A stretch of 64,000 bases of DNA, taken from Eledone cirrhosa (taxonomy: Eukaryota). The stretch lies in the NCBI GenBank assembly GCA_964016885.1, contig OZ024744.1, positions 97,216,001-97,280,000 on the forward strand. The letters run 5' to 3'. Under the pieces are notes generated by a model that saw only the letters and a list, made by a program, of their open reading frames with translations, did no database searches and was not told the DNA's origin. Of this stretch, positions 14,854 through 42,575 are shown piece by piece. The translations under genes were made by a program, and so were the position numbers. Every line of letters begins with the position of its first letter. Position 1 is the first letter of the stretch.

Positions 14854-14854
<1 letters not shown>

Positions 14855-17800
14855 GGCCGCACATGTGTGAAGACAGACAAGTCTGCGGGGAAAAGGTTCG
14901 TAGCTTTAAGCTGTTTTAAAGTGTCTTTTTTTTGTATTTTCTTGTCATTAACGAAACTTAAGGTACACATCTTGATTTAAAGAGAGGGATACCTCTCAAT
15001 ATTCGGGCTTTAAGCCCGAATATTCAGATTTATTTTTTAAAATCTTCGATAAAAATCGCTGCTCCACCAAAAGAAAATTATGGAAATTTTCGACCTTGAA
15101 ACGGTAAACAACGTTCAGGTCAAAAGTTTAAAGGCAGCCACTGCAGATTTCACCATGACTACGACGGCTACAGTCATGCCTGTCATCCACTCTACTGAAT
15201 GTGAAGGCAAAACTAAAAAGCTACCATTACAACCTTCTGCCATAGCAGCAGTATCATCTGAAAACGACATCACCACCACCGCCACCACCACCACCACCAC
15301 CACAACAACAACTCAGAGCAATAACGACAAAAACACCGACAGCTTCAATGTAAACAAGGATGGCGGTGGCAACAGCAAGAATGACAACAACAACAATAAG
15401 AGCATCAGAAACACCACATTTGCTGCAGCAGCAGCAGCAAAAACAAAGCGCTTATTGAATATCGATATTGATATTAGCGATAAAGACGAACAGTTGGCCA
15501 AAGCGTGGAGGCTAATTAAACGGGAGAAGTCCTGGGCAAACCTGGCCATCCCGGACGGGGCAATAGCGGCCATGCAAAGGAGGATGGTGTTCTTTCCATG
15601 CATTTCGGTGCAGACACGAAAAGTGGAACTTGCGAGCCAAGCAGAGGTAGAGGCTGCTTTGGAGTACATCGGAAGTAACATAGAGTACAAAGCAAGAGGC
15701 AAACAGTTCGGTACCATCTCGGTACTGTTCAAATCCGAGGCCCTCGCTATTAAGCACTCGGTGACCCCTGCAGAACGGAACGCATTATCATGCATCCGTC
15801 CTATATGGGTAAAAGGACAGTGAAGGTACGCATTCCCAGCATCCCACCAGGAATGAACATATGGTGGCTGCTGGGATGCGTAATCGAGGAGGGGACAGAC
15901 ACCACCCTCCTGAACATCAAAAGGACAGAGAGAGAAGACTGGTCCGGAATGGATTTGGAGATTCTTCTCCAAATGAAACCGGAGGATATAAATAACATCC
16001 CAGATTTTGCCCGCCTGCAGGACGGGACAACAATCCAACTAATGATTGACGGAAGAAGGCCACGTTGCTTCGTTTGCGGGGAAGCCACGCATCTTCAAGC
16101 CTTCTGCCCTCAGCGCAAAAATGCAGGGGGTCGCAAACCTCCTTTGTTGCCAACGCCAGTGTCAGCACGGAAAGCTGCACCACCACCACCACCAAAAACA
16201 ACATCAACAAAAACACGGACACCAACATCAAAAGCAGCCGGATCACCACCAACACCAAAACCAATCCAAGGAGAAAACGAGGAAAGCTCTCCCACTCCCC
16301 CCCCCCCCCCCCAACTATATACATAGACAAAAAAAAAATAAACGCACACACAGACACAGAGACACTCACAGACACAGACCCTTTGTCTTCCAGCAGCGAA
16401 GATGAAGGAAAACCCAAAAGTGCAAAAAAAACAGAAAACTCACAAAAAAAAAAAAAGCCCCAACAAAACACAAAAACACACACAACAAAAAATACAGACA
16501 CCACTAACGCAGACACTTCCCCAATAACATCAGCACCATCAGCAACATCGACACCACCTCCACAATCCCCGAAACGCAAACAACCTAAACAAACAAGTAC
16601 AAATAAACACACAAATACCTGAAATTGCAGACACCACACCTACAACAAACATAGACATACCCGAAACAACACCACCAAAACCATCGCCACCACCTTCACC
16701 AAAACGAAAACAAATAAAACCACACCAACAAAATGTTAAAAACTTCGTGCTTGTCAGAAGGGCCAACGATAAACTGATGGCCCTCTTAGCGCGAAGCGAG
16801 GACATTCAAACAGAGGGGGAGATTTTTGAAATGAGCACATTTTGCGTGCCAGACGATTTGCTTCTGGTCCGAATGTCACTCAATTCCTTCAAAGAAATTC
16901 GAGAGAGCTTTCCTCAAGACGTGGGAAACCCGAATGTGAAACCCACATCAAGACTTTTAAAGGGGTTCCCAAAAGAAACCCCACCAACCATGGAGGTCGA
17001 ACCACCCGACCTTCACAAGACCCGGGAGGTAAGTAAACCTTCCCTCTCTCTCTCTCTCTTAGCTTACCAATATGGCCATATTAAGAGTAGGAAGTTTAAA
17101 TGTTCGCGGCCTGGGGTCACCCTGGAAGCAGGGTCGCCTGATCAACGACCTCCGGTCGCTGGAAATGGATGTGATTGCCGTAAGCGAGACCAGAATTTCC
17201 GACACGCGTGCACTAGCCCCCATTTTCGACGACTATCAGATCTTCGCATCTGTTAGCAGGCCGGGAATGGGGGTGGGGTGGCAGTGCTGTTTAGGAAAGG
17301 ACTGGATCTCGAGGTAAGGTCGATCTTCCGGGACCCGGACGGTAAGTTGGTGGTCTTGGATGTGAGCAGTAGCGAAGGTGGTGCCTTTAGACTGCTGGCC
17401 GTCTACGCCCCTACAGGGGCCGGACGACCTGACTTCTTTAGGCGCCTGGAGACCTTTCTGGGTACGTCTCGCCCTTTACTGTTAGCGGGGGACTGGAATG
17501 GCATCTTAGACGCACGCTAGGATTGTGTGGGAGTAGCCGATAGGAGCGGGGGGTGCAAAAGCCTCAAGCACCTACTCAGCCAGTTCCAACTGTTTGACAG
17601 GTATCGACTAGACCACCCCAATGTGCCAGTATGGACATGGACCAACCGAATGGGGTCATCTAGATCGTATATAGACAGAATCTTCATTAGGAAAATAGAT
17701 AGCAATAGTGTGGGCTGTCCGCTTTTTAAAACGGTCGCCTATTCAGATCACAAATTTGTGATCTGTACGGTCGACCTAAATAAAACGCGTAGGTTAGGAC

Positions 17801-20799: not shown

Positions 20800-23700
20800 C
20801 TAATGCTATGGTTGACGGAGGCTCGGTTATGTAAGGTATTGTAAATTTTGACCGCTTTAACAATTGTAAATTTTTTAAAACTTTAACCAAATTGTAGACA
20901 AAAACACCCTCCTCCTCGTGAGAGGGGTCTTTCTGCCCGTTATTTGGCCCTTCGGGGTTAAATAACTGCTTATTGGGGTTTCGTACCCAATATTTATTTT
21001 AAACCAAAAAAAAACATGGCTACGAAAAAGAAATTTCATACGTCACTCCCACTCATTCCGTCTTCTTCTTCCTCAATGGTCAATACAGCAGAGAGAAGAT
21101 TGTCTCTCTCCCTCCCTTCTCTAAATGTGTCTCTCTCCCTCCCTTCTCTTTCGCAAGCGACGCCAATAAAGAAAAATCTCGTAGAAAGCGTGCAACATTT
21201 CTCCACGACGACGACGACAACGACGAAAAAGGTGTGCGGGAAATACGAAAACCCATTTCATTCATCTGACGTCATGAATAATAGCAGTAGCAGCCGTAAT
21301 AACAGCAGCAGCAGCAACAGTGACAAGGATAACAACAGTAGCAGCCGCAACAGCATCAGCAGCAGCATAAACAACAACAGCATTAGCAGCAACAGCAACA
21401 ACAGCAGCAGCAGCAGCAACAACAACAACAACCACAGCAACAGCGGCGGCGGCAGTAATCGTAGTACCTGCTGCAACAACAAAAGTAACAGCAGCTCTGA
21501 CGATAACAACAGCAGCAAAGAAAAACCAATCTCGTTTGCAGGTATCGCAAAGAACCTGGAAACCATCCTCATAACAAATGAGGAATTACAGGAAGCGAAG
21601 AAGATGGTGACGAAAACCGGACTCTGAGCAATCTGCAAGGCAGCCGAAACATTTTTCGAAACCCAACAGCTCTGTACGGTCACGTACCGTACAGTAAGCA
21701 CAAAATCCCGTAGGGTTGAAAGAGCCACAGAGGCTCAAATACAAAAAGCCTTAGGGTCTGTGCGGGAGCGGAAAACGCATATCACCCGAGGCAAGAAATA
21801 TGCCACCGTAGACGTGATTTTTGCCACACCCCAGGAGGCAAAGGCTCAATCCTTAGTGACCCTAAGGAGTGAGGAAATGGTGTTGGTGCCCTCCTACTGC
21901 GGGCAAAAAATTGTGAGGGTCAAACTGCCCCCCCCCCCCCGATGGCCCCTTCTTGGCTGGCCGCGTCTGTCCTCGTCGGAATCGAGGACAAAACAACTGT
22001 ACTGCAAGTACAGAAAAAAGTAAGAGAAGATTGGGTCGGCACCTCCATTGAGATGTTAATCCAAACCAACCAGGAGTGCATCGAAGCTATCCCGGATGTG
22101 ATAGACTTCGATAACGGCACTCAACTGCCCATAAGTGTTGAGTGCAAACGCCCGAAATGCTTTCGCTGTGGATCGAAGACTCACCTCAGGGTCTTCTGCA
22201 ACGAAAAGACCCTGAGAAAGGAGAAAACCCCCTCCTTCCGAAACCGGCTCCACGGCTATCAGCAACAGGACAAGCGGCAACCAGGAACGATAGGTCCGTG
22301 ACACCCATACCCACGCCACGGAAATCAAGAACAGCAGCAGCAGTGGAAGTATTAACAACAACAACAACAGTAATACCAAATGCAGCTGCAACAGAGACTC
22401 CACTGCAAACATCACCAACAACAACAAGTGAAAGAGTGGAGCTGGTACCCCTCCCCGACCTCACAGAATCAGACATGGAGTGTGAGGTGGGTAAGGGATG
22501 GCAAAAGGTCGTAAGCAGGCACAAACGCAGAAGCAGCGCATCGTCGCCTTCGAAAAAGGGAGGAAAGAAATGAAAAAAGGGTAAAGGGCAAAGAGACTCA
22601 CAGCAGCAACACCACCAACATCATCACCACCGCCAACAACAACAACACCTTCAACACCACCACCACAAGCACTAACATCGCAAACACAACAACAAAACAC
22701 ACACACCCAGCAACAACGACAAGAAAATAGCAGAACCACACCCCACCCCCAGAAAAACAAATGCACGGTAATAAATACACACAACAAGAAACTAATGACT
22801 TACATAATTGAACACACAGACATTTCACAACAGGACTACATAATACTAGCACCAATCAAAACGCCAACGAACATAAGACTGGTAAAAATAGCACAGAAAC
22901 AATACACAAACATTAAAACGAAATTCCCCAACGCAGTTGGTGATTTCAGAGACCTAGGAGGGACTCTCAACCGGAGAGTATATTCGGATATACTCACAGA
23001 AGAGCCGACGACCAGACGAAGGGACGATTCAACGGTCCCTCCACCAGACGATCAAGTGAAAAGGGATGGTGAAACCATCCTTCCTCTACGAAAAGTACGG
23101 TAAGTGGTCTTTCCTATCTTTTCCACTCCATTTTAAACATGACCTCACTCAGAATAGGCAGCATAAATGCGCGTGGCTTGGGGTCGTCATGGAAGCAGAG
23201 TCACCTGCTCAACAACCTCAGGTCACTAAACATAGATGTAGTGGCCATCAGCGAGACCAGAATCTCCGAAGCAGGGGCTTTCGCACCGATCTTCGGCGGC
23301 TACGTGTGGACGCATCTCCCAGCCGTCCTGGATCGGTGGGAGGAGTTGCTGTGCTTTTTCGGAGAGGTTTGGATCTCGCCATACGGGCCATCTTCCTGGA
23401 CCCAGAGGGTAAGTTGGTGGTGCTGGACGTGACCAGCGGAGACGGGCAAGCTTTCAGGCTAGTGGCCGTCTATGCCCCGACAGGAGCAGGGCGGCCTGAT
23501 TTCTTCCGGCGTCTGGAGACCTTTCTTGGAACGTCCCGCTCTTTAGTGTTAGTGGGCGACTGGAACGGGATCTTAGATGCACGCTGGGACTGTGTGGGAT
23601 TAGCGGATAGGGGAGGAGGGTGCAAGAGCCTCACCAACCTGCTCAGGCGTTTTGAACTGTCTGATAGGTACCGATTGGATTTCCCGAATGTACCAATGTG

Positions 23701-26381
23701 GACTTGGACAAATCGCATAGGGTCATCCAGATCATATCTAGATAGAGTATTTTGTAGCGAAATAGATAGGTCTAGCATAGGCTGTCCACAATTCAAGATA
23801 GTCAGCTACACGGACCACACATTCGTGATCTGTGTGCTTGACTTAGATAGGCTTCATAGACGAGGACCCGGCTACTGGAAGCTAAACGCGTCCTTACCAG
23901 CGCGCAACGCCTACAGAGACCGGATTAGCGAACTAGCTAAGCGGGCGTTGACGGGGGCCATCGTCAACAAGAAGTGGTGATTTGCTCTGAAAAGAGCGAT
24001 TAGAATAGAATCCATTAGGTTTAGTAAGGCTTTAGAAATAGAGAAAAATAGAGCAGAGGGAGAACTAGTTAGAAAATTAGACGAGGCGCTTAGCAAAGGC
24101 ATCGCGACCGACGTGCTTGCGGCGAAATTGGCCCTTGACAAATTCTTCAATGCAAAGCACGAAGGCTGCGTTGTCAGAGCTAGGGTGCGTGCTCTCATAC
24201 ACGAGGGGACGAAAGCTGTTCAATAGGCCCGAGTGGCGGAGGCGCGTCGTGGCAACAAAGCCACGATCCGGTCTTTGGTGGACCACGACGGGCGCATGCT
24301 ACTCGATCCCGAGCAAATGTGTGAAGCTTTTCAGCGACACTTCGCTCAGCTGTTCGGGGCAGCGGTGTGCCGGGTCGAGGGATGGACTTTAGTGTCTACC
24401 TCGACGGACTGCCGCGGTTCTCGGCCACTGAGGCGGAGTGTTGCGAAAAGCCGATAACAGCCGCTGAAGTACGGGAGGCAATGACTGGCTGCACAAGGGG
24501 TAAATCGCCTGGTTTGGATGGTCTGCCCTATGAACTTTACGTACAGATGCCAGACTTGTTCGGAGGCCTCTTGGCGGATGTCTACTGCAACTGGCAACAG
24601 AACGGGAGAATTCCCAGCTCTGTGAGCCGAGGAGCGGTAGCACTGCTGAGAAAGGATCCGAACAAGGGGGATAACATAGATAATTTCAGGCCCATAACTC
24701 TGCTAAACACAGAGTTCAAGATTTTGGCCAAGGTGCTAGCAAACGTGCGAGCCATTACTGCACAAACTGGAGACGTTCTGGGGGGTCCCGCGCGAACTAG
24801 GATGCGGAAGATCCGTGTCAGCATATGCGGACGATGTCACCGTAGTGGTGTCGAACGCCAAACACATCGAGGCGATCGGCACTACACTAAGAGAATACGA
24901 AGCGGTGACAGGAGCAATGATCAACCAGGAAAAGTCAGTGGGCCTGCACCTCGGCACCTGGAGAGAAAGGTCCATGCCGTCCAACAGCGTCGTCGGGCGC
25001 TGGATGGACGGACCAGTTAAATTGCTCGGCGTCTGGTTCGGTCCGGATCTCCAGACGGACAAAAACTAGGACGAGGTGACGAGCAGGGTGGCTTCTCTCA
25101 CCCAGAAATGGGCCGAGAGGAAGCTATCCCTGAAAGGTCGAGCGGAGGTGGCTAACGCGTATATCGCGTCCGTCATCTACTTCCGCCTGACCGTCGTACC
25201 TTGTCCTAGCCCCGCCTGACTGCGCTGGAGCGTTTGCTCTTTCGCTTTTTGTGGAACGGACGCGCTCCGATGGTCAGGCGGTCCATCTGCTGTCAACACC
25301 CGCTACGTGGATGGCTGGGAATGCCGTGGCTGATGATGCGCAGACGGTGATCAGGTCTTTCCCCAGCTCGTCTCCTTGGCGGAGCTGCAGTCCTGGGTCA
25401 AGCGAAGACCGAGAGGGAACGCTTGGCGACTGGAATGTCTTCAGGTGCTCACAGCCCTCGACCAATCGGGCAATGTGATCAGTGGAAACTCCACCTTGGC
25501 GTTCGATAGAGGATTAGTGGAGGGGAAGAGCGACGACGTACTTGGGGAAACTTTAGGCGTCGACGAAAATCAACTAGCCAATCTCTTCAGAAGAACTTTC
25601 GGGTCGGGGCCTATGGACAACTTCCAGAAATCCCTGGCCTGGCAGTGCTACCGAGGAGCTTTGCCAGTTCGCGATAAACTTTACAGGCATGGAGGTGCCG
25701 TCACCGGGCATGTCCGAGATGCGCGCAGGGCGACGAAACCGTCCTGCACTCACTCGTCCAGTGTCCGAGCATTGCTGACTTGTGGGTTTATGTCGAACAC
25801 CTGCTGTCGCGTGTAGGACGGATCGAGCTATCAGCTGAGTCCATCGTGAGGATTGCCCCGCCCTCTTCCTTTAGCCGGGAAGGGCAGGCTGTTTATATCT
25901 GTCTGGTGCCCATGGCGAAAGAGATAGTATGGTGGACACGTTTGAAAGGGCTGAAGACGAACACTTACCTCTTCGGTGATGCCCTGATTAACTTTTTCAA
26001 ATTTCATTTGAAAAGGAAAATCAGGGTAGAAAGGGAAGTGCTCTCTTCCCAGCATTTTGTTGAAAGATGGGTGAGAGAAGCAAGACTGGCCCGAGTGAAT
26101 GGCCTACTCTGAGTATGTGTCTGTAAATTAAAGGTGGAAAACTGGGAGAGGGCACTTGCCCTGGTGGTCAGGGTCACTGTGGCTTTTTAATGGGCTTTCT
26201 CCACCAATGTCCCTCGGAAGTCTCCCCCCTCCCCCTATTGGGGAATTTTTTCATTGTTCTATTATTACATCCTCTGTTTCTTTTTTTTACACGCAGAAAT
26301 GCCCATTTGTACCGCCCTGTATTGTCCTGTACTGTCCTTAATGTCTACTTTATGTAAACCCTTGTGGTTAATAAAGAAATC
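20800..26381 (+). mobile_element. Tx1/L1-type copy E with intact ends, degraded, internal deletion in RT at ~24745
   Basis: Same 5' UTR/ORF1/ORF2 as copy G; multiple stops and frameshifts; AATAAA at 26370; (ATT)n at 26382-26412. Confidence 0.93.
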
Positions 26382-26412: not shown

Positions 26413-29400
26413 TTCCTTGAATCTCAGTCATTGATGTTAACTGGAAAGTCCGTTGGATTGAATATCAAGCCACTACCTGCAGCCTCAGATATTCAGGACG
26501 TATCGGAGGGTTCTTGCTGTTCCAAGCAAGCATGCCTTTTGAAGCGTTCCAAAAAGCGTGAAGAAGCCGATTTTCTTTAACCATCCCTGGAAACCTTTGG
26601 AGATAGTCCCCAGTGCGCCTATGACAATCGGGATCACTTTGACTTCATGGCAGTTCCAAATCCTTTTCACCTCCCACTTTAGGTCCTGGTATCGGTTAAT
26701 TTTCTCCCTCTCCTTCTCTTGCACTCTCGTGTCGAACGGGCAGGCCACATCCACAATCAGGCACGATCTTTTTTCTTTGTCCACAACCACCAGGTCAGGT
26801 CTATTGTGTTCCAGTTTTTTGTCCGTCTGTATCCTAAAATCCCACAGCACCTTCACCTGACTGTTCTCCATCACCGCCTCTGGCCTATGCTCATACCATT
26901 TCTCAGAATGTGGTAGATTGTTTACTTTGCACAGGTGCCAGTGGATCACCCTGCCCATCACATCGTGTCTCCAGCCCTTATAGTGGGTCTGGGCTAGGTG
27001 TTTACACTCGGACACAATGTGAGCCACAGTCTCCTCTCTCTCTCCACAGATCCTGCACAGTGGGCTAGCCTCCTCCTTGTAGATATGGTGCTTCAACCAC
27101 TTCGTTTTGAGGGCCTGCTCCTGCGCAGCCATTAGCATTCCTTCTGTAGCCTTTTTGAGGTCTCCTCTTCTCAACCAGTTCCATGTCTGTGGATCTCTAA
27201 ATTCAGTTTTCTCAAAGAAGGTACTATGAAGGGATTTTCCCTTAAGGCTGCTCTTCCTCCTTGATGTTATTTCCTCCTTGGGTATCCCCTGGCCTACTGT
27301 CCCCTCCTTCAGTACAGCTCTGAGCATTGGCTCCTTACTATAGGTCACGTATTTGTATAGGTTGTTTTTCTCCATCTGAACACAGTCCTCTATGCTGATA
27401 AGACCTCTTCCACCCTCAGATCTCCTTAGGTAGAGTCTATCGACATCACTCCTCTTGTGGAACATGTTGTAGATAGTCAATAGCTTCCTAGTCTTCCTAT
27501 CCATTTCTTTTTGTTCAGCAACATTCCATCTCAGAATTCCCGCACTGTACCTAATAATAGACACAGCTCGGGAATTTACTGCGCTTATGGCATTTCTGCT
27601 GTTCAGATGTGACTTCAATACGCTCCTTACTCTCCGAATGTATTCAGTTCTTAACAATTCCTTCATTTTTTTGTTCTTTATGCCATCAGCCTCCAGAACG
27701 CCCAAATACTTGTATCCTTCCTCAGAGTCAATTTCCTTTATCATCTCACCTGTTGGTATCTGGATCCCGTTACTTCTGCTCAACCTACCCCTCCTCATCA
27801 CAATGACTCCACATTTACCAATACCAAACTGCATACATATATCACTGCTGAAAATACGGACAGTGTCAACAAGCACATCCAACTCCTTCTCACTTTTCCC
27901 GAAGAGCTTAAGATCGTCCATGAAGAGGAGGTGATTGATGGTAAGCTCTCCCCTTCCCAACTTGTATCCTGCTCTCACTTTTCGCAGCATAATGGTCAAG
28001 GGCATCAGGGCAAGGACAAACAACAGAGGGGACAGGCTATCTCCCTGGAAGATACCTCTCTTGATCTTCACGCTTCCCAAGGATACTCCAGTTGATGTCA
28101 ACTCTGTCTCCCAGGACCCCATACTCCTGCCCAGCAACTGTCTGATGTTATCTGCCACCCTGAAGATCTCCAGGCTTTTGGTGATCCAGGAATGAGGCAC
28201 CATGTCAAATGCCTTTCTGTAGTCTATCCATCCCATGGCAAGATCAGTGTGTCTCCTCCTGCAATTCCCCATTACCATCTTATCAATAAGCAACTGGTCC
28301 TTTGTACCACGTGACTTCTTTCGGCATCCTTTCTGTTCGTCCGGCAACAAGTTGTTTGTGTGGAGGTGATGGTAGATTTCCTCAGACACAATGCTCGTCA
28401 ACAGTTTCCACATTACGGGCAGACATGTGATAGGTCTATAGTTGGTAACATCATTACCCTTGATTCGGTCTTTCATTATCAGAACTGTGGTACCTTTTGT
28501 CAACCACTCTGGCACCTCACCCGACACCAAGCAGTCATTGAACATGGCCGTCAGCTTCGGGTGGAGGGATGTTAAATGTTTAATCCAATACCCCTGCACA
28601 CCATCTGGGCCTGGTGATTTCCAGTTGGTTAGTTTTTTGGCTTGCCCCTTAAGAGTTTCAACTGTGATACTCAAATCAGTCTGTTGCTGTGCCTGCTCAC
28701 CGATCTCCCTCTGTACTGTCTCAATCCACCCTGCCTGGGCATTGTGTCTAACATCCTGCTCCCATATTCCTCTCCAGAATGTTTTAGCTTGTTCCGCCCC
28801 AGGGATCAAGTCGGTGCCTCTTTCTTTCCCCTCAAGCTGTCCAAACAGCATCTTCTGGTTGTTGTCGAACATGCGGTTCTGTTTATACTGACTGACTCTG
28901 TTCTCGTATCGCCTGATTTTGGCACTCTTTGCTACAATGCGTTGCTTCAATTCCTCTATGATAATATTTAGCTTTTTACTCCTAGTTTTGTATTTTATTT
29001 CCAGTCTATTTTTAGTGCCTATGTTTTTTAGTGTCCCATTCAGTAGTGACTCAAGCTTTCCTATGTCATTTCTCATTTCCCCGATTTGCCCACTCAGTCG
29101 CTTCTTCCACCACGGCTCTGCTCTTTCTTGTCTGTTGTTTCCTCTCGCTTTTATACCAAGTAGTTTCCTCACCGTATTTGCTGTTGCTTTGAGGATATTG
29201 TTGCACTGGTGAAGACTCCTCGCCTCAAGGTATGGGATGACTTTGTTTACCTTAGCTGTTGTTTCTTTTAACTTTTTCCTGTCTACAAATCTTAGGTTCA
29301 TAGGTCTCCCACTATCATTGTTCAACTCATCTACCACTAAATTTAGGATGTCAACCGAATCTTGTCCTAGCCCGTCAGCATTCATCTCCTCAGTGGCCGT

Positions 29401-29994
29401 ATCTCTGTTCCAGGTATTATTTATCTCAGTATTCAGATCATTGTCTGCTTCGGGTGGTTCCTCCGCTCTCAGGACCTCCTCACCTACATTTCCCGCCGGC
29501 TCGCTTGTCTGGCATACTACACCCGCCATCTCCAAGCCATTCTCTCTGCTCAGTTCCTCCAGTTCCAGCTCGCTTATCCACCCATTAGTTCTTATTACCC
29601 GAGCCTGCCCGGCCAATTTTTGTTCATCTAATTTAAATAAACCAATCTCGTTCCAGATGTTATGCATCCGTCTCCTGTAGCCCCTCTCCTTGGGGTTACT
29701 TTTCAGGTAGCATTGCATAACAGTTCTATTCAATTCTTTCGTCCAGTTGGTTCTGGCCCCTTTCCTTCTTCTTCTTCCTCCAACATCAGCAGTATTCCGT
29801 TGACAGTCAGGTTCCTGCTGCTGAGCCAGGGGGCACCTGTTGGGTGAGAGTCTGTCACATGACGTTCTAGTCTCCATTTCACCGTTATTCGAACTGTTTA
29901 TGTTCGATATTTAAACACTCTTATCGAGGATTGGCGAATGTATGTTTACATAGCCATCTGTGGATCCGCCATCCCACTTGGCCCTTGTGTGGCA
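26413..29994 (-). mobile_element. R4/Dong-type RLE non-LTR retrotransposon copy F, probably full length
   Basis: Intact single ORF with a short 3' UTR ending in (AAT)n on the sense strand; 5' end uncertain. Confidence 0.9.
26485..29877 (-). CDS. Intact 1130-aa RT-CCHC-RLE protein (R4/Dong clade)
   Basis: N-terminal RTNWTKELN..CY; KSPGPDG, YRPITCLP, QGDSLSPLLF, FMDDLKL; CRICGEREETVAHIVSEC; RHD; RPDLVV..VDVACP..KINRY. Confidence 0.95.
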   Translation of the reverse strand: METRTSCDRLSPNRCPLAQQQEPDCQRNTADVGGRRRRKGARTNWTKELNRTVMQCYLKSNPKERGYRRRMHNIWNEIGLFKLDEQKLAGQARVIRTNGWISELELEELSRENGLEMAGVVCQTSEPAGNVGEEVLRAEEPPEADNDLNTEINNTWNRDTATEEMNADGLGQDSVDILNLVVDELNNDSGRPMNLRFVDRKKLKETTAKVNKVIPYLEARSLHQCNNILKATANTVRKLLGIKARGNNRQERAEPWWKKRLSGQIGEMRNDIGKLESLLNGTLKNIGTKNRLEIKYKTRSKKLNIIIEELKQRIVAKSAKIRRYENRVSQYKQNRMFDNNQKMLFGQLEGKERGTDLIPGAEQAKTFWRGIWEQDVRHNAQAGWIETVQREIGEQAQQQTDLSITVETLKGQAKKLTNWKSPGPDGVQGYWIKHLTSLHPKLTAMFNDCLVSGEVPEWLTKGTTVLIMKDRIKGNDVTNYRPITCLPVMWKLLTSIVSEEIYHHLHTNNLLPDEQKGCRKKSRGTKDQLLIDKMVMGNCRRRHTDLAMGWIDYRKAFDMVPHSWITKSLEIFRVADNIRQLLGRSMGSWETELTSTGVSLGSVKIKRGIFQGDSLSPLLFVLALMPLTIMLRKVRAGYKLGRGELTINHLLFMDDLKLFGKSEKELDVLVDTVRIFSSDICMQFGIGKCGVIVMRRGRLSRSNGIQIPTGEMIKEIDSEEGYKYLGVLEADGIKNKKMKELLRTEYIRRVRSVLKSHLNSRNAISAVNSRAVSIIRYSAGILRWNVAEQKEMDRKTRKLLTIYNMFHKRSDVDRLYLRRSEGGRGLISIEDCVQMEKNNLYKYVTYSKEPMLRAVLKEGTVGQGIPKEEITSRRKSSLKGKSLHSTFFEKTEFRDPQTWNWLRRGDLKKATEGMLMAAQEQALKTKWLKHHIYKEEASPLCRICGEREETVAHIVSECKHLAQTHYKGWRHDVMGRVIHWHLCKVNNLPHSEKWYEHRPEAVMENSQVKVLWDFRIQTDKKLEHNRPDLVVVDKEKRSCLIVDVACPFDTRVQEKEREKINRYQDLKWEVKRIWNCHEVKVIPIVIGALGTISKGFQGWLKKIGFFTLFGTLQKACLLGTARTLRYVLNI

Positions 29995-31051: not shown

Positions 31052-33148
31052 ATGGCTACGAAAAAGAAATTTCATACGTCACTCCCACTCATTCCGTCTT
31101 CTTCTTCCTCAATCATCACTACAGCAGAGAGAAGATTGTCTCTCTCCCTCCCTTCTTTAAATGTGTCTCTCTCCCTCCCTTCTCTTTCGCAAGCGACGAA
31201 AGAAAAGAAAAGTCTCGTGCAAAGCGTGCAAGGTTTCTCCACGACGACGACGACAGCGACGAAACAGGTGTGCGGGAAATACGAAAACCCAGTTCATTCG
31301 TCTGACGTCAGGAATAATAGCAGTAGCAGCCGTAATAACAACAGCAACAGTGACAATGAAAACAACAGTAGCAGCCGCAACAGCATCACCAGCAGCATAA
31401 ACAACAACAGCATTAGCAGCAGCAACACCAACAACAACCACAGCAACAGCGGTGGAGGCAGTAGTCGTAGTACCTGCAGCAACAACAAAAGTACCAGCAG
31501 CTCTAACGACAACAACAACAGCAGAGAAAAACCAATCTCATTTGCAGGTATTGCGAAAAACTTGGAAACAATCCTCATAACAAATGAGGAATTAGAGGAA
31601 GCGAAGAAGATGGTGACAAAGAACGGACACCGAGCAATCTGCAAGGCAGCGAAAAATTTTTTCGAAACCCAAGAGCACTGTACGGTCACGTACCGTACAG
31701 TAAGTACAAAATCCCGTAGGGTGGAAAGAGCCACAGAGGCCCAAATACAAAAAGCCTTGGGGTCTGTGTGGCAGAGGTAAACGCACATCACCCGAGGCAA
31801 AAAATACGCCACCGTAGACGTACTTTTTGCCACACCCCAGGAGGCAAAGGCCCAATCAGTAGTGACCCTAAGGAGCGAGGAAATGGTGTTGGTGCCCTCC
31901 TACTGCGGGCAAAAAATTGTGAGGGTCAAACTGACCCACGTCCCCCCCGGAATGACCACTTCTTGGCTGGCCGCGTCTGTCCTCGTCGGAATCGAGGACA
32001 AAACAAATGTACTGCAAGTACAGAAAAAAGTAAGAGAAGATTGGGTCGGCTCCTCCATTGAGATGCTAATCCAAACCAACCAGGAGTGCATCGAAGCTAT
32101 CCCGGATGTGATAGACTTCGATAACGGCACTCAACTGCCCATGAGTGTTGAGGGCAAACGCCCGAAATGCTTTCGCTGTGGATCGAAGACTCACCTCAGG
32201 GCCTTCTGCAACGAGAAGACCATGAGAAAGGAGAAAACCCCCCTCCTTCCGAATCCGGCTCCACGGCTACCAGCAACAGGACAAGCGGCAACCAGGAACG
32301 ATAGGTCCGTGGCACCCATACCCACTCCACGGAAATCAAAGACAGCAGCAGCAGTGGAAATATTAACAACAACAACAGCAATACCAAATGCAGCTGCAAC
32401 AGAGACTCCAGTGCAAACATCACCAACAACAAAAAGTGAAAGAGTGGAGCTGGTACCCCTCCCCGACCTTACAGAATCAGACATGGAGTGTGAGGTGGGA
32501 GAGGGATGGCAAAAGGTCGCAAGAAGGCACAAACGCAGAAGCAGCGCATCGTCGCCTTTGAAAAGGGAGGAAAGAAATGAGAAAAGCGTAAAGTCTACTG
32601 CAAAGAGACCCACAGCAGCAACACCACCAACACCATCACCACCCACACCAGCACCACCATCACCACCGGCGACAACCCCACCGCCAACAACACCTTCAAC
32701 ACCACCACCACAAGCACCAACATCGCAAACACAACAACAAAACACACACACCCAGCAACAACGACAAGAAAATAGCAGAACCACACCCCACCCCCAGAAA
32801 AACAAATGCACGGCAATAAACACACACAACAATAAACTAATGACTTACATAATTGAACACACAGACATTTCACAACAGGACTACATAATACCAGCACCAA
32901 TCAAAACGCCAACTAACATAAGACTGCTAAAAATAGCACAGAAACAATACACAAACATTAAAACGAAATTCCCCAACGCAGTTGGTGATTTCAGGGACCT
33001 AGGAGGAACCATCAATCGAAGAGTATATTCAGACATTCTCTTAGAAGAGCCGACGACCAGCCGAAGGGACGATTCAACGGTCCCTTCACCAGACGATCAA
33101 GTGAAAAGGGATGTAAAAACCATCCCTCCTCTACCAAAAGTACGGTAA
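31052..33148 (+). pseudogene. ORF1 of copy G (~698 codons; S/N-rich N-terminus, CCHC knuckle, T/P/Q-rich linker) with one nonsense codon
   Basis: ORFs 31019-31780 and 31862-33148 share a frame; TAA at 31778-31780 corresponds to AAA in copies A and E. Confidence 0.85.
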
Positions 33149-33182
33149 GTGGTCTTTCCCATCTTTTCCACTCTATTTAAAC

Positions 33183-36100
33183 ATGACCTTACTCAGTATA
33201 GGCAGCATAAATGCGCGTGGCTTGGGGTCGTCATGGAAGCAGGGTCACCTGCTCAACGACCTCAGGTCACTAAACATAGATGTAGTGGCCATCAGCGAGA
33301 CCAGAATCTCCGAAGCACGGGCCTTCGCACCGATCTTCGGCGGCTACGATGTGTACGCATCTCCCAGCCGTCCTGGATCGGGTGGAGGAGTTGCTGTGCT
33401 TTTTCGGAGAGGTTTGGATCTCGCCATACGGGCCATCTTCCTGGACCCAGAGGGTAAGCTGGTGGTGCTGGACGTGACCAGCGGAGACGGGCAAGCTTTC
33501 AGGCTAGTGGCCGTCTATGCCCCGACAGGAGCAGGGCGGCCTGATTTCTTCCGGCGTCTGGAGACCTTTCTTGGAACGTCCCGCTCTTTAGTGTTAGTGG
33601 GCGACTGGAACGGGATCTTAGATGCACGCTGGGACTGTGTGGGATTAGCGGATAGGGGTGGAGGGTGCAAGAGCCTCACCAACCTGCTCAGGCGTTTTGA
33701 ACTGTCTGACAGGTACCGATTGGATTTCCCGAATGTGCCAATGTGGACTTGGACAAACCGCATAGGGTCATCCAGATCATATCTAGATAGAGTATTTTGT
33801 AGGGAAATAGATAGGTCTAGCATAGGCTGTCCACAATTCAAGATAGTCAGCTACACGGACCACAAATTCGTGATCTGTGTGCTTGACTTAGATAGGCTTC
33901 ATAGACGAGGACCCGGCTACTGGAAGCTAAACGCGTCCTTACCAGCGCGCAAGGCCTACAGAGACCGGATTAGCGAACTAGTTAAGCGGGCGTTGACGGG
34001 GGCCATCGTCAACAACAAGTGGTGGTTTGCTCTGAAAAGAGCGATTAGAATAGAATCGATTAGGTTTAGTAAGGCTTTAGCAATAGAGAAAAATAGAGCA
34101 GAGGGAGAACTAGTTAGAAAATTAGACGAGGCGCTTAGCAAAGGCATTGCGACCGACGTGCTTGCGGCGAAATTGGCCCTTGACCAATTCTTCAATGCAA
34201 AGCACGAAGGCTGCGTTGTCAGAGCTAGGGTGCGTGCTCTCAGACACGAGGGGACGAAAGCCGTTCAATGGGCCCGAGTGGCGGAGGCGCGTCGTGGCAA
34301 CAAAGCCACGATCCGGTCTTTGGTGGACCACGACGGGCGCATGCTACTCGATCCCGGGCAAATGTGTGAAGCTTTTCAGCGACACTTCGCTCAGCTGTTC
34401 GGGGGCAGCGGGGGGCCGGGTAGAGGGATGGACTTTAGTGTCTACCTCGACGGACTGCCGCGGCTCTCGGCCACTGAGGCGAAGTGTTGCGAAAAGCCGA
34501 TAACAGCCGCTGAAGTACGGGAGGCAATGACTGGCTGCACAAGGGGTAAATCGCCTGGTTTGGATGGTCTGCCCTATGAACTTTACGTACAGATGCCAGA
34601 CTTGTTCGGAGGCCTCTTGGCGGACGTCTACTGCAACTGGCAACAGAACGGGAGAATTCCCAGTTCTGTGAGCCGAGGAGCGGTGGCACTGCTGAGAAAG
34701 GATCCGAACAAGGGGGATAACATAGACAATTTCCGGCCCATAACTCTGCTAAACACAGAGTTTAAGATTTTGGCCAAGGTGCTAGCAAAGAGGTTGGCGC
34801 TTGTCGTTGGTGGTCTGGTGGGAGAGGCGCAGACATGCGCCATTCCCGACAGATCCATCCACGACAACCTCCACCTCATGCGATACATCGTAGAGAGGGT
34901 AGCTAGGGAACCTGGCACGGGTGGGTCCTTGATCAATTTAGATCAGTCGAAAGCTTTCGATAGGGTCGACCATCGTTACCTAGCGGCAGTCCTGAGGGCG
35001 GCTGGCTTTGGGCCCGTCTTCAGAGGCTGGATCGCTGCCATGCACAGCGACATCTGCTCTGTGGTGAGAGTGAACGGTCACCTGTCGGAACCGTTCAACA
35101 TCATGCGCTCGGTCCGCCAAGGATGTCCCCTCTCGTCCCTCTTGTACGTATTGACTCTCGAGCCATTACTGCACAAACTGGAGACGTTGAGGGGAGTCCC
35201 GCGCGAACTAGGATGCGGAAGATCCGTGTCAGCATATGCGGACGATGTCACCGTAGTGGTGTCGAACGCCAAACACATCGAGGCGATCGGCACTACACTA
35301 AGAGAATACGAAGCGGTGACAGGAGCAATGATCAACCAGGAAAAGTCAGTGGGCCTGCAGCTCGGCACCTGGAGAGGCAGGTCCATGCCGTCCAACAGCG
35401 TCGTCGGGCGCTGGACGGACGGACCGGTTAAATTGCTAGGGGTCTGGTTCGGTCCGGACCTCCAGACGGACAAAAACTGGGACGAGGTTACGAGCAGGGT
35501 GGCTTCTCTCACCCAGAAATGGGCGGAGAGGAAGCTATCCCTGAAAGGTCGAGCGGAGGTGGCTAACGCGTACATCGCGTCTGTCATCTGCTACCGCCTA
35601 ACCGTCGTACCTTGTCCTAAGCCTCGCCTGACTGCGCTGGAGCGTTTGCTCTTTCGCTTTTTGTGGAAGGGACGTGCTCCGATGGTCAGGCGGTCCATCT
35701 GTTGTCAACACCCGCTACGTGGAGGGCTGGGCATGCCGTGGCTGATGATGCGCAGGCACGCGCTCAGGCTACGACATCTCCACCTTTTCCTCGACGGTGA
35801 TCAGGTGTGGTCGCCGTTTGCTAGACGCGTTTTTCCCCAGCTCGTTTCCTTGACGGAGCTGCAGTCCTGGGTCAAGCGAAGACCGAGAGGGAGCGCCTGG
35901 AGACTGGAATGTCTTCAGGCGCTCACAGCCCTCGACCAATCGGGCAATGTGATCGGTGGAAACTCCACCTCGGCGTTCTATAGAGGATTAGTGGAGGGGA
36001 AGAACGACGACGTACTTGGGGAAACTCTAGGCGTCGACGAAAATCAACTAGCCAATCTCTTCGGAAGAACTTTCGGGCCAGGGCCTATGGACAACTTCCA

Positions 36101-36602
36101 GAAATCTCTGGCCTGGCAGTGCTACCGAGGAGCCTTGCCAGTTCGGGATAAACTCTACAGGCATGGAGGTGCCGTCAGCCGGGCATGTCCGAGATGCGCG
36201 CAGGGCGACGAAACCGTCCTGCACGCACTCGTCCAGTGTCCGAAAATTGCTGACTTGTGGGTTTATGTCGAACACCTGCTGTCGCGTTTAGGACGGATCC
36301 AGCTATCATCTGAGTCTATCGTGAGGATTGCCCCGCCCTCCTCCTTTAGCCGGGAAGGGCAGGCAGTTTTTATCTGTCTGGTGGCCATGGCGAAAGAGAT
36401 AGTATGGTGGACACGTTTGAAAGGGCTGAAGACGAGCACTTACCTCTTCGGTGATGCTCTGATTGACTTTTTCAAATTTCATTTGAAAAGGAAAATCAGA
36501 GTAGAGAAGGAAGTGCTCTCTTCCCAGCATTTTGTTGAAAGATGGGTGAGAGAAGCAAGAATGGCCCGAGTGAATGGGCCGACTCTGAGTATATATCTGT
36601 AA
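33183..36602 (+). CDS. ORF2: APE endonuclease, reverse transcriptase and C-terminal zinc finger (1139 aa, intact)
   Basis: SINARGL, ISETR, VYAP, GDWN, YLDR, TDH; FRPITLLN, DQSKAFDRV, RQGCPLS, AYADD; CPRCAQGDETVLHALVQC. Confidence 0.96.
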   Translation: MTLLSIGSINARGLGSSWKQGHLLNDLRSLNIDVVAISETRISEARAFAPIFGGYDVYASPSRPGSGGGVAVLFRRGLDLAIRAIFLDPEGKLVVLDVTSGDGQAFRLVAVYAPTGAGRPDFFRRLETFLGTSRSLVLVGDWNGILDARWDCVGLADRGGGCKSLTNLLRRFELSDRYRLDFPNVPMWTWTNRIGSSRSYLDRVFCREIDRSSIGCPQFKIVSYTDHKFVICVLDLDRLHRRGPGYWKLNASLPARKAYRDRISELVKRALTGAIVNNKWWFALKRAIRIESIRFSKALAIEKNRAEGELVRKLDEALSKGIATDVLAAKLALDQFFNAKHEGCVVRARVRALRHEGTKAVQWARVAEARRGNKATIRSLVDHDGRMLLDPGQMCEAFQRHFAQLFGGSGGPGRGMDFSVYLDGLPRLSATEAKCCEKPITAAEVREAMTGCTRGKSPGLDGLPYELYVQMPDLFGGLLADVYCNWQQNGRIPSSVSRGAVALLRKDPNKGDNIDNFRPITLLNTEFKILAKVLAKRLALVVGGLVGEAQTCAIPDRSIHDNLHLMRYIVERVAREPGTGGSLINLDQSKAFDRVDHRYLAAVLRAAGFGPVFRGWIAAMHSDICSVVRVNGHLSEPFNIMRSVRQGCPLSSLLYVLTLEPLLHKLETLRGVPRELGCGRSVSAYADDVTVVVSNAKHIEAIGTTLREYEAVTGAMINQEKSVGLQLGTWRGRSMPSNSVVGRWTDGPVKLLGVWFGPDLQTDKNWDEVTSRVASLTQKWAERKLSLKGRAEVANAYIASVICYRLTVVPCPKPRLTALERLLFRFLWKGRAPMVRRSICCQHPLRGGLGMPWLMMRRHALRLRHLHLFLDGDQVWSPFARRVFPQLVSLTELQSWVKRRPRGSAWRLECLQALTALDQSGNVIGGNSTSAFYRGLVEGKNDDVLGETLGVDENQLANLFGRTFGPGPMDNFQKSLAWQCYRGALPVRDKLYRHGGAVSRACPRCAQGDETVLHALVQCPKIADLWVYVEHLLSRLGRIQLSSESIVRIAPPSSFSREGQAVFICLVAMAKEIVWWTRLKGLKTSTYLFGDALIDFFKFHLKRKIRVEKEVLSSQHFVERWVREARMARVNGPTLSIYL

Positions 36603-36872
36603 ACTAAAGGTGGAAAACTGGGAGAGGGCACTTGCCTTGGTGGTCAGGGTCATTGTGGCTTTTTACTGGGCTTTCTCCACAAATGTCCCTCCGAAGTCTC
36701 CCCCCTATTGGGGAATTTTTCATTGTTATTTTCATTGTTATTTTTGTTACATCCTCTGTTTTTGTTTTTTTACACGCAGAAATGCCCATTTGTACCGTCC
36801 TGCATTGTCCTGCACTGTCCTTAATGTCTACTTTATGTAAACCCTTGTGGTTAATAAAGAAATCATTATTAT

Positions 36873-39800
36873 CCAAAACTTTCTTTGAAAAAAATGGCTA
36901 ATTCCCCTCTGCACGAAGCAGCTGAAAGCCTTCCTCACAAAATAACACCTCACACCGACACCACCATTGTAAATGTTACTACGTTTGCCAACACAAAAAA
37001 ATATATAAGCAGTAGCAATATTTTAAATTTGTCTCAGGCAGACATTCATTTCCCGCCATTACCTATGACTGCAGGTGTTAAACCCTCCACCACCACCACC
37101 ACCGCGACAACCACCACCACCACCACCACCACCGCGACAACAGAAACAAAAGAAGAAAAAAATAAATTAACTCGTGACGTCGAAATGAAATCAAGCAAAA
37201 TGGACTCTTCCCCACCAAAGACGACTGACGTCACAACCACCACAACTGAAAATAAAATTAATATTAACGATAGCAACAACAACAACAATGACATTATAAA
37301 ACCGACCCTCAGTTTCGCCATCGTAGCAAAACAATTCGAAGCGTTCACGGTAACCCAAGAAGATTTAGAAAATGCCAAACAAATGGTAAAGAAAGATGGG
37401 TACAGGGTCAGCCTCACCCCCCCCACCTAATAAAATGGAGCATCGGCGCCTGTGCACCGTGTCGTATAGAACAATAAATGTAAAATCGCGCCGAGTGTAA
37501 CGGGCATCCGAGTCCCAAATCCAAAAAGCTTTGGGACATGTGTGGGCAAGAAAAACCCACATCAGACGTGGGCAAAAGTATGGAACCGTGGATGTGTTCT
37601 TTGAAACACCAGAGGAGGCTAGAGAACACTCCATGGCCCCATTAAAAAGTGACGACCTCACACTCGTCCCAAGCTATTGTGGCCAGAGACTCGTAAAGAT
37701 CAGGGTGACCCACGTTCCACCGGCCATCGAAATTCCCTGGCTAATAGCGGCCGTCCTCACCGGCATCGAAGCCAACACGAAAATAATAGCAGTAGCAAAA
37801 GAAAAGCAGGAAAACTGGTCCGGATCTGGGATGGAGCTCCTGATCCAAGCGGACCAAAAAAGCATTGAGGAGATCCCAGAGGTAATAGACCTCACTGACG
37901 GCAGCCACCTCACGGTAATTGTCGAGGGCAGAAGACCTAGGTGTGTCGTTTGTGGTGAAGGAACCCACCTAAGGGCTTTCTGCCCTCAGGCTAAAAGGTT
38001 GAGGCCACCTCTCCTACCCACCCCAGTGACAAAACCATCAACACCACCAGTAGCAGAGATGGCAGCAACAACTGTAGCAGCAACAACAGAAGCAACTATA
38101 ACAGCAACAACCCCAGCAACAGTAGCAAAACCAACACCACTACCACCACCAGCAAAACCAACACCACCACCCAACGCTTCAGAACTAGCACCAGCGCCTA
38201 CACCATCCACCACACCACAACCAAAACTAACGGCTGTGGAGGATTTTCCACTCCCCGGCCTATCACAACTGGAGACAGATTGTGACGACGAGGAGTGGGA
38301 AACGATATCCGGAAAAAAAAAAAGAAACCAAAAAAGAAAAAATTCTCTTCCTTCCCCCTCCAAAAACAAAATACAGAGGGAAACAAATAAACTAAGAAAC
38401 AAAAAAGTTAGGACAGATATGCCACCATCCACACCAGCATCACCAACCCCATCAACCCAAACACCAACACCATCACCATCATCATCCCCAGCACCACCAT
38501 CACCTACACCACAAAAGTCACCAAAAAGCGAAACAGAAACAAACCCACAACAAACGCAAACAAAACAAAACAACCAAAACGATACACACTACACAGCATT
38601 AAATTTGAACAACAAGCAATTATTACACTACATCCAACACAACACCAGCATCACAGAAAAAGACTACACAACAACCCCAAAATTCACACCACCCCCACAC
38701 ATACAAATCACTCGCATCACACAGAAAACGTACATGACACTAAAACAAAAATTCCCCAAAGACATCGGAGACTTCCGACAAGCACTCTCCAGGAGGATTT
38801 ATAAGGACATCCTTCCTGAGGAGGCCACAAGCAGTGAAAAGGATGGAAAAGCCGTCCTTCCCCTACGAGAAGTAAGGTAAGTGGTCTTTCCCATCTTTTC
38901 CACTCCTTTTCAACATGACCTCACTCAGAATAGGCAGCATAAATGAGCGTGGCTTGGGGTCGTCATGGAAGCAGGGCCACCTGCTCAACGACCTCAGGTC
39001 ACTAAACATAGATGTAGTGGCCATCAGCGAGACCAGAATCTCCGAAGCACAGGCTTTCGCACCGATCTTCGGCGGCTACGATGTGTACGCATCTCCCAGC
39101 CGTCCGGGATCGGGGGGAGGAGTTGCTGTGCTTTTTCGGAGAGGTTTGGATCTTGCCATACGGGCCATCTTCCTGGACCCAGAAGGTAAGTTGGTGGTGC
39201 TGGACGTGACCAGCGGAGACGGGCAAGCTTTCAGGTTAGTGGCCGTCTATGCCCCGACAGGAGCAGGGCGGCCTGATTTCTTCCGGCGTCTGGAGACCTT
39301 TCTTGGAACGTCCCGCTCTTTAGTGTTAGTGGGCGACTGGAACGGGATCTTAGATGCACGCTGGGATTGTGTGGGATTAGTGGATAGGGAAGGAGGGTGC
39401 AAGAGTCTCACCAACCTGCTCAGACGTTTTGAACTGTCTGACAGGTACCGAATGGATTTCCCGAATGTACCAATGTGGACTTGGACAAGTCGCATAGGGT
39501 CATCCAGATCATATCTAGATAGAGTATTTTGTAGGGAAATAGATAGGTCTAGCATAGGCTGTCCACAATTCAAGATAGTCAGCTACACGGACCACAAATT
39601 CGTGATCTGTGTGCTTGACTTAGATAGGCTTCATAGACGAGGACCCGGCTACTGGAAGCTAAACGCGTCCTTACCAGCGCGCAAGGCCTACAGAGACCGG
39701 ATTAGCGAACTAGTTAAGCGGGCGTTGACGGGGGCCATCGTCAACAACAAGTGGTGGTTTGCTCTGAAAAGAGCAATTAGAATAGAGTCCATTAAGTGTA

Positions 39801-42575
39801 GTAAGACTTTAGCAATAGAGAAAAATAGAGCAGAGGGAGAATTAGTTAGAAAATTAGATGAGGCGCTTAGCAAAGGCATCGCGACCGACGTACTTGCGGC
39901 GAAATTGGCCCTTGACCAATTCTTCAATGCAAAGCACGAAGGCTGCGTTGTCAGAGCTAGGGTGCGTGCTCTCAGACACGAGGGGACGAAAGCCGTTCAA
40001 TGGGCCCGAGTGGCGGAGGCGCGTCGTGGCAACAAAGCCACGATCCGGTCTTTGGTGGACCACGACGGGCGCATGCTACTCGATCCCGGGCAAATGTGTG
40101 AAGCTTTTCAGCGACACTTCGCTCAACTGTTCGGGGGCAGTGGCGGGCCGGATCGAGGGATGGACTTTAGTGTCTACCTCGACGGACTGCCGCGGCTTTC
40201 GGCCACTGAGGCGGAGTGTTGCGAAAAGCCGATAACAACCGCTGAAGTACGGGATGCAATGACTAGTTGCACAAGGGGCAAATCGCCTGGTTTGGATGGT
40301 CTGCCCTATAAACTTTACGTACAAATGCCAAACTTGTTCGGAGGCCTCTTGGCGGACGTCTACTGCAACTGGCAACAGAACGGGAGAATTCCCAGCTCTG
40401 TGAGCCGAGGAGCGGTGGCGCTGCTGAGAAAGGATCCGAACAAGGGGGATAACATAGATAATTTTAGGCCCATAACTCTGCTAAACACAGAGTTCAAGAT
40501 TTTGGCCAAGGTGCTAGCAAAGAGGTTGGCGCTTGTCGTTGGTGGTCTGGTGGGAGAGGCACAGACATGCGCCATTCCCGACAGATCCATCCACGACAAC
40601 CTCCACCTCATGCGATACATCGTAGAGAGGGTAGCTAGGGAACCTGGCACGGGTGGGTCTTTGATCAATTTAGATCAGTCGAAAGCCTTCGATAGGGTCG
40701 ACCATCGTTACCTAGCGGCAGTCCTGAGGGCGGCTGGCTTTGGGCCCGTCTTCAGAGGCTGGATCGCTGCCATGCACAGCAACATCTGCTCTGTAGTGAG
40801 AGTGAACGGTCACCTTTCGGAACCGTTCAACATCATGCGCTCGGTCCGCCAAGGATGTCCCCTCTCGTCCCTATTGTACGTATTGACTCTCGAGCCATTA
40901 CTGCACAAACTGGAGACGTTGAGGGGGGTCCCGCGTGAACTAGGATGCGGAAGATCCGTGTCAGCATATGCCGACGATGTCACCGTAGTGGTGTCGAACG
41001 CCAAACACATCGAGGCGATCGGCACTACACTAAGAGAATACGAAGCGGTGACAGGAGCAATGATCAACCAGGAAAAGTCAGTGGGCCTGCAGCTCGGCAC
41101 CTGGAGAGGCAGGTCCATGCCGTCCAACAGCGTCGTCGGGCGCTGGACGGACGGACCGGTTAAATTGCTAGGGGTCTGGTTCGGTCCAGACCTCCAGACG
41201 GACAAAAACTGGGACGAGGTGACGAGCAGGGTGGCTTCACTCACCCAGAAATGGGCCGAGAGGAAGCTATCCCTAAAAGGTCGAGCGGAGGTGGCGAATG
41301 CGTACATCGCATCCGTCATCTACTACCGCCTGACCGTCGTACCTTGTCCTAAGCCCCGCCTGACTGCGCTGGAGCGTTTGCTCTTTCGCTTCTTGTGGAA
41401 GGGACGCGCTCCGATGGTCAGGCGGTCCATCTGCTGTCAACACCCGCTACGTGGAGGGCTGGGCATGCCGTGGCTGATGATGCGCAGACACGCGCTCAGG
41501 CTACGACATCTCCACCTCTTCCTCGACGGTGATCAGGTGTGGTCGCCGTTTGCAAGACACGTTTTTCCCCAGCTCGTCTCCTTGACGGAGCTGCAGTCCT
41601 GGGTCAAGCGAAGACCGAGAGGGAGCGCTTGGAGACTGGAATGTCTTCAGGCGCTCACAGCCCTCGACCAATCGGGCAATGTGATCGGTGGAAACTCCAC
41701 CTTGGCGTTCTATAGGGGATTAGTGGAGGGGAAGAGCGACGACGTACTTGGAGAAACTCTAGGCGTCGACGAAAACAACTAGCCAATCTCTTCGGAAGGA
41801 CTTTCGGGCCGGGGCCTATGGACAACTTCCAGAAATCCCTGGCCTGGCAGTGCTACCGAGGAGCTTTGCCAGTTCGGGATAAACTCTACAGGCATGGAGG
41901 TGCCGTCAGCCGGGCATGTCCGAGATGCGCGCAGGGCGACGAAACCGTCCTGCACGCACTCGTCCAGTGTCCGAGCATTGCTGACTTGTGGGTTTATGTC
42001 GAACACCTGCTGTCACGTGTAGGACGGATCCAGCTATCAGCTGAGTCCATCGTGAGGATTGCCCCACCCCCTTCCTTTAGCCTGGAAGGGCAGGCAGTTT
42101 TTATCTGTCTGGTGGCCATGGCGAAAGAGATAGTATGGTGGACACGTTTGAAAGGGCTGAAGACGAGCACTTACCTCTTCGGTGATGCCCTGATTAACTT
42201 TTTGAAATTTCATTTGAAAAGGAAAATCAGGGTAGAGAGGGAAGTGCTCTCTTCCCAGCATTTTGTTGAAAGATGGGTGAGAGAAGCAAGTATGGCCCGA
42301 ATGAATGGGCCTTCTCTGAGTATGTGTCTGTAAATTAAAGGTGGAAAACTGGGAGAGGGCACTTGCCCTGGTGGTCAGGGCCACTGTGGTCTTTTAATGG
42401 GCTTTCTCCACAAATGTCCCTTGGAAGTCTCCCCCCTATTGGGGAATTTTTCTTTGTTATTTTATTTCAACCTCTGTTTTTTTACACGCAGAAATGCCCA
42501 TTTGTACCGTCCTGTATTGTCCTGTACTGTCCTTAATGTCTACTTTATGTGAACCCTTGTGGTTAATAAAGAAAA

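Follow-up and report, generated by a model that had tools for sequence, protein, structure and literature searches.

The window analysed here, a whole stretch of 64,000 nucleotides of Eledone cirrhosa DNA (GenBank assembly GCA_964016885.1, contig OZ024744.1, positions 97,216,001 to 97,280,000 of the forward strand, in a genome of 3.0 Gb), holds an array of long interspersed nuclear elements (LINEs). As a case study we took one copy, referred to below as element A, in which a first open reading frame (ORF1) ends at 33148 and is followed by an intact second one (ORF2), and we considered the short junction between the two, where a splice-donor-like motif holds the ORF1 stop codon and lies at the base of a predicted long-range RNA helix. 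ORF1 (31052-33148, + strand) consists in this copy of two frames opening with ATG, 31052-31780 and 31883-33148; a Pfam search gave no match for it, and its CX2CX4HX4C knuckle was read directly from the translations. ORF2 (33183-36602, +) encodes 1139 amino acids with an APE endonuclease, a reverse transcriptase (RT) and a zinc finger, recognised by Pfam as Exo_endo_phos, RVT_1 and zf-RVT, each above cut-off. The 3' untranslated region (UTR; 36603-36873, +) contains one arm of the helix, a short conserved hairpin at about 36702-36714, AATAAA at 36853-36858 and an (ATT)n end. This hairpin, of the CCCC-TATT-GGGG type, and a CCCTTGTGG motif ahead of AATAAA (36842-36858) were conserved in all families compared, and both are candidates for recognition by the ORF2 protein. 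Element 3' ends adjoin (ATT)n or (TATC)n, which may be tail or target. A separate ORF1 with a CCHC knuckle is a feature of the Tx1 clade, and the Tx1 label given to the element in an earlier reading of the letters without database searches (hereafter the sequence-only reading) is consistent with this anatomy. Among named homologues the best, from Argonauta hians, is 74% identical across the RT region; no named Tx1 reference was found among the homologue and ESM Atlas matches, the latter being generic LINE ORF2 clusters only.

According to the sequence-only reading, the 52 nt that follow the donor-like motif could be a micro-intron, the regulated removal of which would yield an ORF1-ORF2 polyprotein. 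Taking the splice consensus, the branch-point rule, the complementarity to U1 and the CCHC motif as general knowledge, we could confirm the geometry that had been described. The last codons of ORF1 are GTA CGG TAA (33140-33148), and the motif ACG/GTAAGT (33142-33150, +; the slash marks the putative splice point) holds the stop codon TAA (33146-33148), with its GT at 33145, that is, in phase 2. No AG follows the donor until a CTCAG (AG at 33195-33196) in codon 5 of ORF2, the ATG of which is at 33183, and deletion of 33145-33196 (+) does join the two frames. Copies E (donor and spacer 23097-23152, +; proposed intron 23100-23152, 53 nt) and H (38874-38928, +; 38877-38928, 52 nt) behave like element A, and copy H has, as claimed, an ORF1 that differs from that of A. 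The three spacers had rightly been called non-independent: they belong to one spacer family, the pattern of which is matched by 4,559 intact genomic junctions. Copies A and H have a common spacer and ORF2, and comparison of 31052-33148 with 36874-38880 places the switch between their ORF1 types about 45 nt 5' of the donor. By eye, the 52 nt contain a single match to the yUnAy branch-point rule, the A of which is 5 nt from the end. A literature search for the shortest introns of the host, with which the 52 nt might be compared, gave no figure.

Genomic copies precisely lacking the 52 nt were sought with a pattern of the two flanks separated by 0-25 nt, the intact pattern having the same flanks 45-62 nt apart. 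Against the 4,559 intact junctions, this genomic pattern search gave no precise spliced copy and one unrelated, non-splice deletion. For human L1, spliced integrated elements (SpIREs) were counted at 116 for 6,609 full-length L1PA1-6 copies, about 1.8% (PMC5860796), a rate that applied here would give about 80 spliced copies. LINE proteins mostly copy the RNA that encodes them (PMC5860796), so that, if ORF2 were made from spliced RNA, the spliced RNA should be the one copied and this cis-preference would favour its recovery in the genome. Two other family types, which by eye make up about one third of the first 100 listed ORF2 starts, gave no spliced copy against an uncounted denominator, the search not extending to D-type (see below) and phase-1 families, and a more general pattern in which the exon end runs into sequence other than the donor, and which misses joins with T at +2 or G at +5, returned seven small local deletions. 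Among contigs of unknown kind (five of six runs examined), no joint of 33144 to 33197 occurred among the 14 joints listed in four runs, and no joint from the donor among the 15 listed of 353; as contigs drop rare forms, both results are evidence neither way. In run X5, which is apparently 3'-biased, the contig 31799-33209 spans the donor unspliced.

The conservation of the donor was examined in a donor-blind sample, ORF2 starts being picked by their endonuclease motif (4,269 matches, the first 100 listed inspected by eye). G/GTDDGT, in which D is A, G or T, precedes 89 of these 100 starts, a single base or a gap of one base separating the remaining 11 from it; the three commonest variants consist of a G, one each of the three stop codons, and GT. 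The same motif was present in 17 out of 17 family representatives chosen to span the types (ORF2 53-80% identical in amino acids to that of element A), 25-46 nt 5' of the ATG, with five positions invariant and positions +3 and +4 varying only among donor-type states. By comparison, 26 of 90 four-fold sites were invariant across 14 families (excluding one interrupted representative), and deep clades agree at about 0.5 of their four-fold sites; at the four-fold rate, five invariant donor positions would have a chance of about 0.002, a value that is only rough because one position is part of the stop codon in many families. By these comparisons the donor is conserved beyond chance as a U1-type motif, irrespective of the reading frame.

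The rest of the proposed intron is not kept in this way. Among families the donor stands in phase 2, 1 or 0 with respect to ORF1, and the first AG lies 28-61 nt downstream. A join would be in frame in phase-2 families with the AG at codon 3 or 5 and, over a mere 28-34 nt, in a phase-0 family; it would be out of frame in phase-1 families and in one phase-2 subfamily (first AG at 61 nt). In the phase-0 family, D (donor and spacer 17026-17074, +; ORF2 74% identical in amino acids), the donor is read as Val-Ser within ORF1, which continues through it to a TAG lying 9 nt upstream of the ATG of ORF2 (17029-17062; loci L031-L050); 16 of 20 copies have this ORF1 in the frame of ORF2, and elsewhere the length of a (CT)n tract shifts its end. 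Since the donor is conserved over all phases and the first AG varies, it is the donor that is kept and not the micro-intron: acceptor and frame match are not independently conserved, and of the conservation in sister families asked about in the sequence-only reading, the motif stands whereas phase and acceptor do not.

A 52-nt intron fusing ORF1 and ORF2 into one protein has in its favour a strong donor and the in-frame join in A, E, H and several other phase-2 families. Besides the missing spliced copies and the out-of-frame families, it has against it first-AG lengths of just 28-42 nt in some other families and, in a 41%-identical relative described below, a donor only 13 nt from the ATG. 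The genomic counts largely refute the fusion, and we regard it as highly improbable. The in-frame join is accounted for by a phase-2 donor together with an AGR codon for arginine early in the endonuclease, and is very likely a coincidence of the two. This negative matters, the fusion being an attractive one.

A second feature overlaps the donor. Family by family, the stretch from the donor through the spacer to the ORF2 AUG has a complement that spans the ORF2 stop and the beginning of the 3' UTR. In element A the predicted 5' arm (33131-33187, +) comprises the last ORF1 codons, the donor, the pyrimidine spacer and the AUG, and the predicted 3' arm (36595-36650, +) the ORF2 stop, a purine tract and the anti-donor; in a fold of the whole element (33060-36870, 3.8 kb), 33131-33172 pairs with 36609-36643. 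The corresponding 3' arms lie at about 26118-26174 in copy E, 42325-42381 in copy H and 20482-20537 in family D. Pairing of the spacer with the UTR start was calculated for 14 of the 17 representatives, leaving out two with broken 3' ends and one sister copy of an included type, and gave energies between -36 and -56 kcal/mol, with z from -2.6 to -7.2, in all 14. Arms of the same family pair better than swapped arms (permutation p 5e-5), and the result holds for the complex part around the donor, where it ranks 1 of 120 in two five-clade subsets (12 of the 14 representatives, two mosaics left out). GTAAGT, GTAGGT and GTGAGT donors each face a matching partner, so that three states are represented, although the own partner is not always the best single one (row ranks 1 to 11).

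Of about 180 segments ranked as partners, the one at the end of ORF2 comes first in 11 of 12 families, and likewise in 7 out of 7 further copies (the 3' end was undetected in the other 14 of 21), and with a fixed single query 9 of 12 focal families fall in the top 5, versus 2 of 17 distant LINE controls. Short joint folds of 11 of 12 families have the stem ending where the AUG meets the final codons of ORF2, and all or nearly all of the donor core is paired in 7 of 12. Together, these folds predict that the helix closes ORF2 into a 3.4-kb loop; an Rfam search found no credible family. In several families the anti-donor strand (36623-36636 and homologues) can alternatively form a local hairpin with part of the anti-donor in its loop, which suggests a two-state switch.

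Outside this genome, tandem arrays with an ORF2 41% identical to that of element A are present in CAXXMW01, in another host (26 of 47 loci examined). CAXXMW01 is filed as a bacterial metagenome-assembled genome, and its many tandem eukaryotic LINE arrays (loci L239-L277, L281, L285) are evident contamination. The main 41% family (L249) has AAG/GTAAGT right after the ORF1 stop; as only 13 nt separate this donor from the ATG, there is no room for an intron. A second family (L275) has no donor at the ORF1 end and shows an equivalent helix in its whole-element fold. In L249, a first helix test with the sequence after the stop only was negative, and a segment shifted post hoc ranks 1-2 of 391, with one covarying column (G-C 25, A-U 5, mismatch 3). 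The helix is predicted in two or more lineages of only 41% identity, of which one lacks the donor. Three scans for relatives found nothing and a further one only relatives of 25-42% identity. Donor-like motifs near the junction were rare in the distant metagenome loci (32 of 80 examined; 25-31% identity, one 42%), and 17 distant relatives of 25-31% identity mostly have neither the donor nor an ORF2-closing helix.

The persistence of the helix where the donor is absent, as in L275, favours a view in which the helix serves translation, either by setting reinitiation at ORF2 or by making the synthesis of ORF2 depend on an intact 3' end; the donor-like motif would then be an inherited by-product of the Arg-stop context and the pairing. 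The closure of the stem at the AUG and the last ORF2 codons would suit such a role, as would the make-up of the three commonest donor variants, and RNA structure governs reinitiation in SART1 and caliciviruses (PMC5972666). It is difficult to reconcile with a motif that persists both where it does not serve as the stop codon (phases 0 and 1; 3' of the stop in L249) and where it is unpaired, or with the second donor motifs (GTAAGT or GTGAGT) that follow the ORF2 stop in relatives, and we consider this explanation unlikely.

Those second donors belong to 3' UTRs with a textbook intron-like segment (donor, pyrimidine tract, YAG), retained in the copies seen. In L249 the donor lies 17 nt past the ORF2 stop and is followed, at about 260-280 nt in the UTR, by an acceptor-like site, the stretch between them being unspliced in all 47 (overlapping) matches; in L275 the donor is at +43 and the acceptor at +187. 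Such strong acceptors raise another explanation, in which splicing runs from the donor at the ORF1 end to an acceptor located at the ORF2 stop or past it. This would give a message for ORF1 alone and a control of the ORF1:ORF2 ratio like that of copia or EVD, and the helix would regulate the splice. There are acceptor-like sites 3' of ORF2 in the E. cirrhosa families also, a pyrimidine tract and CAG (36742-36779, +) confined to UTRs of the A/E/H type and, in 11 of 12 families, a YAG at the stop of ORF2; EVD shGAG offers a precedent (PMC5580714). The CAG was rejected as a clade-wide acceptor: it is not conserved, and several families have none after the hairpin. The TAG-G at the stop codon is accounted for by helix pairing as well. 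Genomic searches gave no copy with the donor joined to the CAG at 36779, to the A-type UTR start or, in five family types, to the stop-codon AG, against at least 5,082 A-type 3' ends, near which such a join would sit. That absence is partly excused because RNA lacking ORF2 cannot retrotranspose in cis; since Tx1 machinery likely mobilises other RNAs in trans (PMC4494074), joined copies would nevertheless be possible, and their absence weakens the ORF1-only message, which we regard as a real but doubtful possibility.

Two constraints, donor and helix, overlap at the junction, each of them separate. Because the donor persists regardless of its role as stop codon and of its pairing, a trans-acting reader may be suspected, most simply U1. 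We favour, with a probability of roughly 0.4, the reading that the donor is an unspliced docking site for U1, covered by the predicted ORF2-closing helix once ORF2 has been transcribed, and that ORF2 is a separate protein. The U1 small nuclear ribonucleoprotein would dock on the growing RNA at the end of ORF1 and might guard the unspliced RNA, while it is being transcribed, against premature cleavage or decay. The helix could form only once the polymerase is past the ORF2 stop; its 3' arm would then displace or crowd U1, so that a 3' end could form about 210 nt downstream and the unspliced RNA be exported. In the cytoplasm the helix would cover the ORF1 stop and the ORF2 AUG, throttling ordinary termination-reinitiation, so that ORF2 would be made separately, with no fusion. 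A comparable arrangement has been described in foamy virus, where U1 at a donor suppresses polyadenylation and RNA structure blocks this effect (PMC3694450).

Several observations weigh against the U1 docking reading. The donor core is partly or wholly unpaired in 5 of 12 families, which makes the masking incomplete; L275 has the helix and yet no donor at the ORF1 end, and in two copies of L249 the helix is absent from the whole-element folds. The families share ancestry and some representatives are mosaic, for which reason the permutation p-values are too small. Poly(A) hexamers in the kilobase after the donor number 3 over 22 representatives, below expectation, and those before it 25 against 11.8 expected (non-independent), without U-rich downstream elements; direct evidence for a threat from premature polyadenylation is weak. 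Finally, the strong acceptor-like sites in the 3' UTRs of three lineages would fit real splicing.

An extension of the U1 docking reading would make the junction a completeness switch. The RNA would sense its own full length through the helix that joins the ORF1 stop, the spacer and the ORF2 start to the far end of ORF2; U1 would be released in the nucleus, and in the cytoplasm the ORF2 start would be held beside the ORF2 stop and the 3' tail. Such a switch would set how often ORF2 is produced and hand the new enzyme its own RNA. We put it forward tentatively, and as a whole it is rather improbable.

The array is interleaved with another family of retrotransposons lacking long terminal repeats (LTRs), at 26485-29877 and 11880-14864 (both - strand), with one intact RT ORF of 1130 amino acids, and a fragment at 52029-52541 (-) resembles, by eye, a Tc1/mariner transposase. 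An A-type ORF1 passes directly into the donor of another family at locus L098, and in a chimera at 7334-10432 an A-type ORF1 is fused to the middle of another family's ORF2, with the junction near 8730. Splicing was rejected as the source of this chimera, because the break precedes the position of the donor by about 50 nt.

A general question about LINEs is how an unspliced RNA carrying two genes yields so little ORF2, and how it comes about that complete RNAs are the ones mainly copied. A conserved putative U1 site in a co-varying predicted helix, the loop of which is exactly ORF2, would provide a precise experimental handle on ORF2 control. L1-Tx1 families are known in Octopus vulgaris (PMC13282606), and the Tx1 clade of the L1 group includes elements with microsatellite targets, such as Kibi at (TC)n, Koshi at (TTC)n and crocodilian Tx1 (PMC4494074). 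The present element resembles Tx1 elements by its two ORFs, the APE-RT-zinc-finger ORF2, the CCHC knuckle in ORF1, the ends adjoining (ATT)n or (TATC)n and the tandem arrays. It differs from them by the conserved donor at the ORF1 stop and the predicted ORF2-closing helix, which are not described for Tx1 in the available portions of the two articles (PMC4494074, PMC13282606); nor did we find a description of a conserved donor within an ORF2-closing helix in the open-access literature (main texts, without supplements or Repbase-type reports).

Comparison with human L1, also a LINE with splice sites, is informative in that spliced RNA would leave precise genomic copies (PMC5860796); the L1 donors giving SpIREs lie in the 5' UTR, and SpIREs amount to about 1.8% of full-length L1PA1-6 copies, whereas here we count 0 against 4,559. 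Like L1, SART1 and caliciviruses, the element has a short spacer, a separate AUG and, by prediction, RNA structure near the stop-restart site; their known structures are local, whereas the predicted partner of the AUG in this element lies at the far end of ORF2 (PMC5972666). Ty1/copia EVD shGAG has in common with it a strong conserved donor near the end of the structural ORF, and U1 additionally prevents premature termination in EVD; unlike EVD, where a conserved acceptor and spliced RNA were observed, the present non-LTR element has no conserved acceptor and gave no spliced product in our searches (PMC5580714). With the major donor of foamy virus it would share a donor that acts without splicing and is gated by RNA structure; the viral switch is local and set by the duplicated LTR, whereas the predicted partner here is 3.4 kb away and the loop is exactly ORF2 (PMC3694450). 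With its conserved donor sitting at the foot of a helix predicted to close ORF2, the element would appear to show a variant on known retroelement RNA control.

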